In this document: piece after piece, positions 15,581 through 39,763 of the stretch | How the letters are laid out: each line of letters opens with the position of its first letter | Numbering within the stretch: position 1 is the stretch's first letter | Assembly (NCBI GenBank): GCA_018715125.1 | Contig: DVMF01000007.1 | Location: forward strand, 38,452 to 102,451 | Source of the DNA: Candidatus Coprousia avicola | GTDB lineage: Bacteria > Actinomycetota > Coriobacteriia > Coriobacteriales > Coriobacteriaceae | Reading direction: 5' to 3' | Length of the DNA stretch: 64,000 nt | The notes under the pieces: generated by a model | Told to the model about the DNA's origin: nothing | Databases searched by the model: none | What the model saw: only the letters and a program-made list of their open reading frames with translations | Made by a program: the position numbers and the translations under genes

Positions 15581-15752
15581 GGGTGTCCCTTCCGTTTGTG
15601 TCTGAGATATCCTAGCACGTGCGGGCGGCGGTGCCAGGCGGCGCGGCGGGCGGGGCCCATGCTACACTGTCGGGTGATTTCTGCCGCCACGCGGCGCGAT
15701 GGCGCGCGCGGGTGGCCGAGGGGCGGCGCCTCTGCGCCGAGGGAGGATGACT

Positions 15753-16520
15753 ATGATCAAAGCGGCGTTTTTCGATATCGACGGCACGCTCCTGAGTTTT
15801 GAGACGCACGCCATGCCGCCCTCGACCGTGCGCGCCCTCGCCGCGCTGCGCGCCCAGGGGATACGCTGCGTCATCTCGTCGGGGCGCCCCACCTATCAGC
15901 TGCCGCCGGAGCTCCGCGAGGGCTTTGACGCGTACGTCACCCTAAACGGCCAGCTCTGCTATGACGCGGAGGGCGTGTATCGCAGCTGCCCCATCGCCGA
16001 GGCCGATGTGCGCACCATCGTCGGCCAAGTGGAGGAGGGTGTCTTTGACGCCCTTGTCCTCCAGCGCGAGCGCTCGTTTGTCAACGCGCTCACCCCGCGG
16101 GTGCAGGCGGTGGCGCGCCAGGCGAACCTCGTGTACGAGCCCGATGACATCGCGCGCGCCTTCGACGCGCCCGTCTACCAGTTCTGCGTCTTCGTCGAGC
16201 CGGGGGAGGAGGGCGTCTTTCTCGACAAGACGACCTCCGTCGCGGCGACGCGCTGGACCAACCTCTTCTGCGACGTGGTCCCGCGCGAGGGCGGCAAGGC
16301 CTTCGGCGTGGAGGCGACGCTCGCACGCTTTGGGTTGGGACCCGAGGAGGCGGTGGCCTTTGGCGACGGCGAGAACGACCTCAGCATGTTTGGCGCCGTG
16401 GGGACGAGCGTGGCGATGGGGAACGCGTGGGACAGCGTGAAGGAGCGCGCGACGCACGTGACGACCGGCGTCGACGACGACGGCATCTGGAACGCCTGCC
16501 GCGCACTCGGCCTGATATAG
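15753..16520 (+). CDS. Cof-type HAD-IIB hydrolase
   Basis: FFDIDGTL, SSGR, K..G and AFGDGENDLSM. Confidence 0.92.
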   Translation: MIKAAFFDIDGTLLSFETHAMPPSTVRALAALRAQGIRCVISSGRPTYQLPPELREGFDAYVTLNGQLCYDAEGVYRSCPIAEADVRTIVGQVEEGVFDALVLQRERSFVNALTPRVQAVARQANLVYEPDDIARAFDAPVYQFCVFVEPGEEGVFLDKTTSVAATRWTNLFCDVVPREGGKAFGVEATLARFGLGPEEAVAFGDGENDLSMFGAVGTSVAMGNAWDSVKERATHVTTGVDDDGIWNACRALGLI

Positions 16521-16584
16521 GGGCCGGGGCGCGCCGGCGTCCCGCGCAGTTGCGCGTCGCCCGCCCGCGAGGGGAGAGAAGCAC

Positions 16585-16860
16585 CAGATTGCATGCCTGG
16601 GCCCTGAGGGGGGCGCCAGATTGTGCGTCGTGGCCAAGGGGGACAAAAGCGGCGTATTGTATGTCGGCACACCCCGGGGAGAAAGCCCGCAGATTGTATA
16701 GGCAGATTGTATGTTCTGATCTCAAAGCGGCGAAAGCCCAGCTCAGCGCGGTGCAAAGAACGGGCGGATTGTATAGAAAGATACAATCCGCCCCATCTTT
16801 ACCCTGGTTTTCATACAATCTGCCGCATCTCTCCCATTCTGCGTGAATATACAATCTGCC
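16585..16860. repeat. Intergenic array of nine CAGATTGTAT-like motifs arranged around a central palindrome
   Basis: Six forward copies (16585, 16617, 16653, 16690, 16703, 16765), three inverted copies (16781, 16813, 16849) and a 13-bp perfect inverted repeat at 16762-16793. Confidence 0.75.
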
Positions 16861-17005
16861 TCGTTTCTCCCACCACCTTCGTGGTATGCCATCCGCTGCT
16901 TTCGGCCCCTTCACTTCGGTGTGTTCAGTCTGGGGCGCTGCACGGCACTTTTAATCGGTGTCGATTTTGGGCAGCCTCGTGGCGCAATGCGACGCAATGG
17001 GGTAA

Positions 17006-17023
17006 AGTAAGCGCAAGCTAACT
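17006..17023. promoter_or_regulatory. Candidate DtxR/MntR operator AGTAAGC-GCAA-GCTAACT
   Basis: 7-4-7 near-palindrome (one mismatch) about 50 bp upstream of the DtxR/MntR-family gene. Confidence 0.45.
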
Positions 17024-17074
17024 CATATCGTCGCCCCGGGAGCGGTGCGACGTGCCCGTCAAGAAAGGCATCCC

Positions 17075-17470
17075 ATGGCGCACGAGCTGCACGAATCCGG
17101 CGAAGATTACCTCGAGGCCATCCTCATGATCGAGAACGAGCGCGGGCTCGCCCGCTCCGTCGACGTGGCGGAGCGGCTCGGGGTAACCAAGGCGAGCGTG
17201 TCCAAGGCGATGGGAATCCTGGAAGGGCGCGGTTATATCGAGATGGCGCGCCGGCAGGTCAGGCTCACCGAGGCGGGGCGCGTCGTGGCAGAGCGCATGC
17301 TGGAGCGGCACGAGTACTTCCGAGGACTGCTCGTGCGCGCCGGGGTGACGCCGGAGGTCGCGGCGGCGGAGGCCTGTCACATGGAGCACTGCCTCTCGAG
17401 CGATTCCTTCGCCAAGCTGCGCGCCCACTTGGAGGGTATCGACGCGCGGTGCGCTACGCGCCCTTCTTGA
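17075..17470 (+). CDS. DtxR/MntR-family metal-dependent regulator (no SH3-like domain)
   Basis: EDYLEAI, RSVDVAERLGVTKASVSKA helix-turn-helix, RH and EACHMEHCLS. Confidence 0.9.
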   Translation: MAHELHESGEDYLEAILMIENERGLARSVDVAERLGVTKASVSKAMGILEGRGYIEMARRQVRLTEAGRVVAERMLERHEYFRGLLVRAGVTPEVAAAEACHMEHCLSSDSFAKLRAHLEGIDARCATRPS

Positions 17471-18083
17471 GGTTGGGGATGATGCGCTTCACGATCCAGA
17501 AGATCGCGACCACGACGACGAGCGCGATGATGACGTACTTGACGATGCTCGAGACCCACTCCGCCTGCTCGGAGACCTGCATCCACGCACTGCCCGCCGC
17601 GGCGCCGAGCGAGCAGAGCACCGTGTTCCAGACGGCGGAGCCGACAAGTGTGAAGAGCGTGAACTTGACCGGGTTCATGCGCGCGGTGCCGGCGGGGATG
17701 GATATGAGGCTGCGCACGACGGGGATGCAGCGGCAGATGAGGACCGTTGCCTGCCCCTTGCGGTCGAACCAATCGATGGCGCTGGTGATGTCGGACCCCT
17801 TGAAGCCGAGCAGGCGCATGGGGCGCGTCTCGAAGAAGCGCATGAGGCGCTCGCGCGAGAGCACCCAGCCGATGCCGTACAGGATGTAGGCGCCGAGGAC
17901 AGAGCCCGCCGTCGCCGAGATGATGACGAGGGGCAGCACCATGTCGGTCGTGGTGGTGAAAAATCCGGAGAGCGGCAGGATGACCTCGCTGGGTATGGGC
18001 GGGAAGATGTTCTCGATGAAGATGAGGGCGCCTACGGCGAAGTAGCCGAACTGGTTGATGAAATCGAAGAAGAGGGTGTCCAT
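17454..18083 (-). CDS. DedA-family membrane protein
   Basis: ENIFPPIPSEVILPLSG, RCIPVVRSLISIPAG and F.LFTLVGSAVW. Confidence 0.93.
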   Translation of the reverse strand: MDTLFFDFINQFGYFAVGALIFIENIFPPIPSEVILPLSGFFTTTTDMVLPLVIISATAGSVLGAYILYGIGWVLSRERLMRFFETRPMRLLGFKGSDITSAIDWFDRKGQATVLICRCIPVVRSLISIPAGTARMNPVKFTLFTLVGSAVWNTVLCSLGAAAGSAWMQVSEQAEWVSSIVKYVIIALVVVVAIFWIVKRIIPNLKKGA

Positions 18084-39360: not shown

Positions 39361-39454
39361 GCTGACCCCGCGGGCGCTAGGCTCCCGCCGTCTGACGCCC
39401 GACGGTGGGACCGGCGGCTTCAAGCCCCATGGTGCCCGCCCCGACGCCCCGACC

Positions 39455-39712
39455 GTACACTCGCGCGTACATTGCCGCGCGTTTTGCCCGGGCCTCGGGA
39501 CATTTTTCGCGGCAAAGAACCCGTCAATGTACGCGCGAATGTACGGTCGGAGAAAGCGCTGGTAGCGGGCTGCACATTTTCCCTCGCAATGTACGCTCAG
39601 CCCCGTCTTGGCTCCCGCAGCGCCCTTTTTAGTACATTGCGCGCGATATTGTACCGAGGCCCGGGCAAAAGGCCCCGCAATGTACGCGGCAATGTACGCG
39701 GCAATGTGCGCG
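39455..39712. repeat. Intergenic CAATGTAC motif array with nested inverted repeats
   Basis: About ten motif copies in both orientations, inverted-repeat pairs 39482-39498/39654-39670 and 39464-39478/39686-39700, and a 3x12-bp tandem GCAATGTACGCG at 39677-39712. Confidence 0.78.
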
Positions 39713-39763
39713 CCTGTGCGGGGCGCGGGCGGGAGGCCGGCAGAAGGACGCGTGCCCTGCCCG

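Follow-up and report, generated by a model that had tools for sequence, protein, structure and literature searches.

A dispersed palindromic repeat family in Candidatus Coprousia avicola and its probable pairing with DUF559-domain proteins

The DNA studied here is a window of 64,000 nucleotides (contig C73, positions 38452-102451) from the draft genome of Candidatus Coprousia avicola (G000; 2.42 Mb in 93 contigs), and our subject is an array of short repeats at 16570-16909, in the gap between a gene for a Cof-type HAD hydrolase (15747-16520) and a gene for a DtxR/MntR-family regulator (17075-17470). The array at 16.6 kb is one dispersed copy of a lineage-specific, non-coding palindromic repeat family, here named F1, which is probably the cognate DNA of ~325-aa DUF559 (Vsr-like) proteins. 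Of eight gene lineages examined, seven have close homologues of this DUF559-domain protein beside arrays or between them, and the sequence of the repeated unit changes with the protein lineage. In the present genome, F1 is best read, by analogy, as an orphaned nuclease-associated repeat, similar in logic to repetitive extragenic palindromes (REPs) and their REP-associated tyrosine transposases (RAYTs), and the copy in the HAD-MntR gap is not specifically tied to either of these genes. A second repeat family (F2) is found in the same genome, and both families also occur in the sister species Collinsella sp. An268 (G009). The identities of neighboring genes were judged from the sequence alone.

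The first-pass annotation of the window had described nine copies of a 10-nt motif, CAGATTGTAT, arranged in mirror symmetry around a perfect palindrome in an AT-richer gap of about 550 bp. The symmetry and the gap stand: the palindrome GGGCGGATTGTAT-AGAAAG-ATACAATCCGCCC is located at 16762-16793, and the gap spans 555 bp from the stop codon of the HAD-hydrolase gene (16520) to the start of the MntR-like gene (17075), with a GC content of 0.51-0.57 as compared to 0.66-0.73 in the surroundings. With at most one mismatch, CAGATTGTAT was found seven times in the window, always within 16585-16858, against a chance expectation of 0.63, and none of 100 shuffles reached seven copies. Two further copies with two mismatches (16617, CAGATTGTGC; 16653, CGTATTGTAT) bring the total to the nine described, six forward and three inverted. 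The true repeat unit, however, is not 10 nt but ~24-25 nt long, with the consensus GGGGAGAAAAGCGGCRGATTGTAT, and it is bipartite, consisting of GGGGAGAAA, three to five variable bases and GCRGATTGTAT. Recounted in this way, the F1 copy contains ten ~24-nt units, six forward and four inverted, around the palindrome, the tenth being a degenerate unit that the annotation had not included. The unit itself is not self-complementary, and palindromy is confined to the center of the element. The features of this copy, with scores from a position weight matrix (PWM) of the unit, are as follows.

16570..16909 (~340 bp), no strand: whole F1 copy with left arm, central palindrome and right arm, from repeat search and PWM scan; aligns with 16 other copies in the two sister genomes.
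16571..16595, plus strand: outer left unit GGGGAGAGAAGCACCAGATTGCATG, PWM score 33.5.
16606..16626, plus strand: degenerate left unit GAGGGGGGCGCCAGATTGTGC, in inverted-repeat pair I10.
16639..16663, plus strand: left unit GGGGACAAAAGCGGCGTATTGTATG, PWM score 36.1.
16676..16713, plus strand: left double unit, a full unit and an overlapping half-unit GGCAGATTGTATG 13 nt apart, PWM score 36.3; the 13-nt step is kept in all copies.
16732..16761, plus strand: conserved non-unit block GAAAGCCCAGCTCAGCGCGGTGCAAAGAAC, near-invariant between copies.
16755..16800, no strand: central palindrome (pair I7), with perfect 13-bp arms at 16762-16774 and 16781-16793 separated by AGAAAG (6 nt), and with A/T-rich extensions, complementary in part.
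16780..16872, minus strand, inverted relative to the left arm: three right-arm units at 16780-16804, 16812-16836 and 16848-16872, PWM scores 31.8, 35.2 and 33.7.
16885..16909, minus strand: degenerate outermost right unit (the tenth), PWM score 18.6.

The array is one member of a dispersed family. The sequence GATTGTAT occurs 47 times genome-wide, mostly in clusters, as compared to four occurrences of a reversed control, and a PWM scan of the genome recovered 58 units, of which 56 were located at the 10 repeat loci and the other two were a solitary remnant on contig C88 and a weak solitary match on C89. Clustering and alignment resolved ~11 F1 loci in the present genome and 11 in An268, all of them intergenic and all built on a single shared architecture. 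Since the assembly is a draft in many contigs, additional copies or an unassembled partner may exist. In the shared architecture, the left arm contains a full unit with a half-unit at a distance of 13 nt, followed by a 62-nt step that holds the conserved non-unit block GAAAGCCCAGCTCAGCGnnGTGCAAAGAAC, the central palindrome, and a right arm with units at steps of 32 and ~36 nt, so that the start-to-start distances 37, 13, 62, 14, 32 and 36 recur. The spacing had been described as irregular, which is how it appears in a single copy, but across copies it is rigid, and the 160-nt core measures 159-160 nt in 17 of 17 aligned copies, with about one-third of its columns variable. Paralogous copies are 89% identical in unit columns and 42% identical in linker columns, with almost no insertions or deletions, which points to constraint on units and spacing during the formation of the family, as judged from the alignments.

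The center of F1 is its best conserved part. Its arms are inverted copies of the unit, but with outer units that degrade and vary in number, it has no sharp ends. The symmetry of the palindrome has been kept by changes on both sides (15 cells versus 7.9 expected, a value reached in one of 500 shuffles), for example CAG/CTG in the copy on C76 and GGCCGG/CCGGCC in a copy in An268. Such changes would be consistent with an intermediate in the form of a hairpin or cruciform, or else with templated correction. The central palindrome is predicted to be terminator-like on the minus strand, with a G+C-rich stem-loop followed by a run of T, and the predicted fold of the whole element has an energy of -113 to -123 kcal/mol. 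A promoter scan of the element revealed no sigma-70-like promoter, an Rfam scan of 16000-17500 at E <= 10 gave only noise far under the gathering scores, and the one reading frame that was inspected by eye for coding potential is closed by a stop codon in the copy on C71.

Two further observations concern single pieces of F1. A lone non-unit block, CCAGCTCAGCGCGTTGCAAAG, is present at C70:270-305 within a small imperfect palindrome, 3' of the stop codon of an unidentified gene and with no units nearby. Another F1 copy (C91:1-131 and C3:1-255) has been hit by a 1353-bp insertion sequence (IS; ends GGCTTATAGGACAAAAAGTGTGTC, a single open reading frame (ORF) of 388 aa, copy at C28:15993-17345) directly beside its central palindrome, and the assembly breaks there. 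This IS was considered as a source of F1 and rejected, its ends being unrelated to the units.

The genes that flank F1 copies are tandem, convergent or divergent, the orientation of the element relative to them is random, and they are unrelated housekeeping genes such as those for DnaB, RF1, ATP-binding cassette (ABC) transporters and tRNAs. The idea of a regulon was rejected on the grounds that the flanking genes are unrelated.

Across species, some of the arrays do lie beside a DUF559 gene. The annotation had suggested looking for related arrays that flank a coding gene elsewhere, and such arrangements were found, for example in G007, G004, L127, P0010, P0020 and G006. The gene lineages and their arrays are listed below, with percentages referring to protein identity; A-type denotes the lineage of the C66 protein of the present genome, and paralogue B a second lineage, 47% identical to A.

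G007: a 323-aa ORF lies between two arrays that are 1.5 kb from each other, and its C-terminus matches DUF559 (Pfam E 8e-7, above cut-off).
G000, C66:5440-6414 (A-type): 68% to the G007 protein; located between rpoC and rpsL, with an F2 copy at a distance of 67 bp.
G009, C3: 67% to the G007 protein; the orthologous F2 copy is 65 bp away.
G004, C5: 62% to the G007 protein; flanked by an array on either side, of which the downstream one runs + + + - - - with steps of 38, 38, 41, 61 and 12, which is the F1 layout.
L127, a metagenomic species (P0006): 48% to paralogue B; at the rpoC-rpsL position, with arrays on both sides that contain CTGAGCTGG and GTGCAAAAC blocks.
P0010: 48% to paralogue B; lies between units of its own, of the TTGTGAAC type.
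P0020: 42% to paralogue B; lies between units of its own, of the AAGTGCA type.
G006: 43% to paralogue B; followed downstream by an element that has CTGTTCCCTAGA units.
P0029: 40% to paralogue B; a 42-nt inverted repeat with GTGCAAAA downstream.

The A-type gene occupies the position between rpoC and rpsL in at least three species (G000, G007 and L127). In G007 and L127, the arrays beside the DUF559 gene likewise contain the blocks CTGAGCTG(G) and GTGCAAAA(C) of F1. Wherever this was checked, the unit or array of a lineage is also scattered genome-wide, as for F1 and F2 in the two sister species and for the units of G007 and G006; in the latter, a 15-mer of the unit has 27 occurrences at ~10 dispersed loci (control, 0). 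There is one gene copy per repeat family versus 10-15 possible target copies. The sub-repeats had been proposed as possible transposase-binding sites, which is not supported in this form: the flanked gene encodes a protein with a DUF559/Vsr-like nuclease domain and no known transposase. Since it is no known transposase gene and resides at the conserved rpoC-rpsL position, the logic of the system is nearer to that of REP and RAYT than to that of a classical MITE (a miniature transposable element with inverted repeats).

For F1 itself, the sequence comparisons suggest that paralogue B is the partner. The gene for paralogue B is intact in An268 (G009:C2:21200-22201), where it starts ~215 bp from an F1 copy. 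In the present genome, only residues 160-333 are left (85% identity), abutting a half-deleted F1 copy on contig C82; the N-terminal 160 residues of B are gone here, and so is half of the adjoining F1 copy. B-type sequences were identified only in these two genomes, which is the same species distribution as that of F1, and the other genomes of the genus that have the protein family contain A-type genes with 43-47% identity to B. As a separate observation, a 49-nt AT-rich inverted repeat (L125:550-773; C61:15749-15972 in the present genome) lies ~500 bp 5' of a 33%-identical paralogue of the DUF559 family, and this repeat may be another cognate element.

The A-type proteins match DUF559 (PF04480) with 29-32 bits, as compared to a cut-off of 20.6. 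The protein family comprises 142 clusters at E <= 1e-5, one of them with ~13,000 member sequences, and all clusters with a source name are from Collinsella or Coriobacteriaceae and are called "hypothetical protein." Conserved motifs include RDGSRSPMETA, GGLG, cDAy, IEYnGxxH and DEER, and the residues E187, D232, E243, H249 and R261 are invariant across 39 homologues, a pattern that fits a putative Vsr-like (PD-(D/E)xK) active site. The AlphaFold2 (AF2) model of the protein has a pLDDT of 90.9 and a pTM of 0.89. At the domain level, the best Foldseek matches include the catalytic domain of the homing endonuclease I-Bth0305I, a weak match with a probability of 0.84 and an E-value of 0.3; others were chains of the Toxoplasma and Tetrahymena mitoribosomes, which we take to be RAP-domain proteins, and TnsA ranked far below. 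The N-terminal ~170 residues have no match to a Pfam family.

The distribution of F1 is narrow. BLAST searches of 41 relatives and a pattern search for the central palindrome (at most one mismatch) in 401 genomes of the family placed F1 only in the present genome and in An268, and with ~11 copies in each of these two genomes, it is neither a single-copy sequence nor one that is conserved in position in all relatives. The HAD protein beside the array is 99% identical to its An268 counterpart. Sites that are free of the array do exist in more distant relatives: the order of the HAD and MntR genes is kept in Enorma phocaeensis (L016) and in the metagenome-assembled genome L023, with gaps of 240 and 215 bp, respectively, as compared to 555 bp, and with no array motif. 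Between the two sister species, the flanks of the F1 loci are 95-98% identical, and seven loci are occupied at the same site in both, five of them colinear and two with a strongly diverged element. Two further loci are partial in one of the two species.

The loci that differ between the sister species are marked by remnants. On C43 of the present genome, 10 bp are left where An268 has 483 bp; on C88, 1.5 units are left, with a GAGAGA microhomology at the junction; the copy on C82 lacks the center, one arm and 700 bp beyond; and at the An268 site of copy C62b, what remains is the outermost left unit and, from the outermost right unit, its last 8 nt. As all differences are deletions that left remnants, F1 is an old and decaying family. 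Judging from these loci, the common ancestor of the two species had at least 13 F1 copies.

Between orthologous F1 copies, the divergence is 7.8% in columns that are conserved among paralogues, as compared to 18.8% in variable ones (Fisher p = 8e-8); for third codon positions of the flanks, it is 7.0%. In the variable linker columns of F1 (in the window, 16570-16909, with the orthologue L103), the 18.8% between the sister species is ~2.7 times the third-codon rate. Possible sources of this excess divergence are hypermutable unpaired loops and patchy conversion between copies.

We hypothesize that the N-terminal part of the partner protein binds the repeated units, and that the several sites in each arm would enable the formation of a phased nucleoprotein complex. 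The Vsr-like domain may then nick or cut at or near the palindrome, after which repair or strand transfer could either copy the element to new intergenic sites or homogenize the existing copies. In the present genome, the partner would be broken, and F1 would be eroded by deletions that end in or at the element and leave remnant units behind.

Several observations weigh against this interpretation. Each of the four loci at which the sister species differ in presence or absence shows a deletion with remnants rather than an insertion, and at the polymorphic sites there was no target-site duplication, no recent insertion and no clean pair of filled and empty sites. The rate of change in conserved columns is approximately that of third codon positions, and the comparison thus does not demonstrate present-day purifying selection in place. 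The array of paralogue B is located on the 5' side only, and the gene in P0029 is adjoined by a long inverted repeat only, with no clear array of units. Neither B nor its 96% relative P0001 has a Pfam match, and a nuclease function for B is suggested by its 43-47% identity to the A-type proteins and by the invariant residues that they have in common. Furthermore, the third residue of the E-x-D motif is variable, which makes catalysis uncertain, and a Foldseek search against PDB returned nothing at E <= 0.001. The association of genes and arrays could equally be explained by the homing of the gene into repeats that were already there.

The homing of the gene is the main rival hypothesis, and the lost transposon, the host-selected platform or RNA, and the MntR operator rank lower. 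Under the homing hypothesis, the repeats were there before the DUF559 gene, and this gene, homing-endonuclease-like or a cassette, inserts into or beside them; the repeats would then be a target or a recombination hotspot and not a product of the gene, and F1 would spread or persist by another route. Genes bracketed by arrays, as if one element had been split by the insertion of a gene, the homing-endonuclease domain as the best, albeit weak, structural match of the C-terminal domain, and paralogues at several unrelated loci are all in line with this hypothesis, and a unit that changes with the protein lineage fits both interpretations alike. However, the presence of the A-type gene at the same rpoC-rpsL site in the three or more species mentioned above indicates vertical inheritance rather than fresh homing, and a single gene copy per repeat family is at odds with 10-15 potential targets. 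We consider gene homing unlikely, but less so than any other rival. Less probable still, F1 would be a MITE of the classical kind that goes back to the multi-site ends of a Tn7/Mu/IS21-type DDE transposon, with an autonomous partner that has been lost or escaped sampling. The earlier suggestion of a protein-binding platform or of an element resembling a MITE or a bacterial interspersed mosaic element (BIME) holds insofar as F1 is multi-copy, dispersed and non-coding, with sub-repeats that resemble protein-binding sites, but not with regard to target-site duplications, sharp termini or a fresh insertion, none of which was found. The ~24-nt units, direct within an arm and inverted between arms that are spaced differently, recall the ends of Tn7 and Mu, and F2 has fairly sharp ends with terminal inverted repeats of ~45 bp. 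On the other hand, the PWM scan revealed no unit-flanked transposase in the genome, a self-BLAST showed no large repeats bounded by units, and there are no target-site duplications at polymorphic sites. Likewise, a pattern scan of IMG/VR gave only two AT-rich chance matches, scans of JGI metagenomes gave none and then three chance matches, and BLAST searches of plasmids (F1 and F2) and phages (F1) gave no matches. The well-kept center and degraded outer units of F1 are, moreover, the opposite of what is expected for transposon ends.

Yet another possibility, to which we assign a similarly small weight as to the MITE, is that F1 is a DNA or RNA element selected by the host, such as a platform for nucleoid proteins, an insulator, a bidirectional terminator or a structured non-coding RNA, that is kept at ~11 loci for the benefit of the cell. 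Rigid spacing with variable linkers, the 89% versus 42% identity of paralogues in unit and linker columns, and the terminator-like central hairpin together with the predicted fold of the whole element (-113 to -123 kcal/mol) would all suit such an element. Yet one or the other sister species has lost it at three to four loci with no obvious consequence, it is absent from all other relatives searched, and it is oriented at random with respect to genes. At the C43 site, the element comes after an ordinary terminator, and neither an Rfam match nor a sigma-70-like promoter was identified. That the array is a cluster of operators for the adjacent MntR-like regulator has next to nothing in its favor other than its position upstream of that gene. 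There are 11 copies beside unrelated genes, and the occurrence of copies in all gene contexts with unrelated neighbors rules out both a regulon and an MntR operator cluster. In addition, the syntenic relatives without the array keep a separate DtxR-type palindrome-like motif nearer to the gene: AGTAAGC...GCTAACT is found upstream of mntR in E. phocaeensis and in L023. The corresponding feature in the window is as follows.

17002..17026, plus strand: candidate MntR/DtxR-type operator GTAAAGTAAGCGCAAGCTAACTCAT / AGTAAGCGCAAGCTAACT, outside the array, with a putative operator role.

F2 is a second family of the same design. The copy in the window is tied to F1 by a shared GCAAAGAAC block, a bipartite unit and a 62-nt spacing.

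39445..39715, no strand: F2 copy, unit GCAATGTACGCG.

The family consists of elements of ~255-290 bp with 13-15 copies in the genome and 80-89% identity. Besides the features just mentioned, the double unit is common to F1 and F2, and the bipartite unit follows one plan in both, with an A/T-rich tail, a G+C linker and a TGTA-type head. The double-unit pattern GCAAWGAACCCGNNRRTGWAC (at most one mismatch) was identified in eight of 12 genomes of the genus, with 17 occurrences in the present genome, 21 in An268 and 18 in G007, and its reversed control gave none. The F2 loci are mostly common to the two sister species. At the site of the window copy, An268 has no F2 copy and instead a 6.3-kb segment, which was considered as the core of a mobile element and rejected, because it is an operon for a binding-protein-dependent ABC transporter.

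A broader hypothesis, which we consider quite possible but would stop short of calling probable, is that the Coriobacteriaceae have a second, non-HUH class of repeat-associated enzymes, in which a nuclease of the DUF559 Vsr fold with a new N-terminal domain maintains, and now and then multiplies, its own family of phased palindromic repeats. A duplication of A into B in the ancestor of C. avicola and An268 would have changed the specificity from CAATGTAC to GATTGTAT and thereby founded F1, and the truncation of B would later have orphaned it. If true, this would be a protein-DNA pair, selfish or domesticated, that speciates inside a single genome. If the pairing is real, partnerships of the REP/RAYT type are not limited to HUH transposases and Proteobacteria, and one with a partner of the restriction-endonuclease fold would also exist in Collinsella and related bacteria, some of the most common Actinomycetota in the guts of humans and animals. 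What this locus adds is two related families with different units in one genome, each beside its own paralogue, the matching species distributions of paralogue B and F1, and a natural knock-out of the partner with a decaying repeat family. A full-text literature search on DUF559 with repeats retrieved no description of such a partnership. Arrays of this kind should not be annotated as operators, promoters or CRISPR arrays.

A CRISPR identity was rejected, in agreement with the first-pass annotation: the units occur in both orientations with linkers of 12-40 nt, and the true CRISPR arrays of the genome (C6:1-2790, at least 42 repeats; C93:41366-41697, at least six repeats) are built from a different repeat, GTCGCACCCTTCACGGGTGCGTGGATTGAAAC, presumably of a type I-C-like system, that has only GGATTG in common with the F1 unit. 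F1 does resemble the BIMEs of enterobacteria and the BOX elements of Streptococcus pneumoniae, which are likewise extragenic, hairpin-capable mosaics of short motifs with a variable number of units. In F1, however, direct units in each arm converge on one palindrome at fixed distances, and there is a candidate cognate gene. MITEs such as the Correia elements and the Tn3-derived inverted-repeat miniature elements (TIMEs) are also small, non-coding, multi-copy and rich in inverted repeats, and F2 has fairly sharp ends as they do, but no target-site duplication, matching IS or defined F1 terminus was found.

The ends of Tn7 and Mu contain several transposase sites of ~22 bp, have 5'-TG...CA termini, generate a 5-bp duplication and are accompanied by an adjacent DDE transposase. 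The several sites of ~22-25 bp in each arm, inverted between arms and unequally spaced, are similar in F1, a resemblance only. The center of F1 is more conserved than its tips, its termini and duplications cannot be defined, and there is no DDE transposase, TnsA or TnsB near the copies, TnsA being a weak fold match only. The Vsr-like homing endonuclease I-Bth0305I (PDB 3r3p, EDxHD) is the best domain-level fold match of the C-terminal domain of the partner, but the match is weak (E 0.3), and the partner gene is not located in an intron or intein and is syntenic across species.

The genome also encodes a RAYT-like protein with a Y1_Tnp domain and HUH and Y motifs (C31:4412-5431, at a contig end), the C-terminus of which, by eye, resembles a DnaA-C-type helix-turn-helix. 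Two direct repeats of ~50 nt (ATCTGGGGACGGGGTCGAAGCATGC...) precede the gene, and score-matched genes, taken as orthologues, are present in at least six genomes of the genus. A link of this gene to F1 or F2 was rejected, as their units are absent from its flanks and from those of its An268 orthologue and of three other Y1 genes.

The REP units of Proteobacteria are imperfect palindromes or hairpins of 20-40 nt with a GTAG or CGTC tag, and they occur together with RAYT (TnpA-REP) systems. The partner proposed here differs from a Y1 HUH transposase in being a DUF559/Vsr-like protein with a PD-(D/E)xK fold, the unit is a bipartite, non-palindromic sequence of ~24 nt in phased arrays, and there are tens of units per genome rather than hundreds. 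These differences apart, F1 and F2 resemble REPs and their doublets (REPINs) in being short, non-coding palindromic repeats scattered in intergenic DNA, in having one vertically inherited partner gene per family at a fixed locus with its own flanking repeats, and in forming long-lived families of variable copy number, in which different gene lineages go with different repeats.

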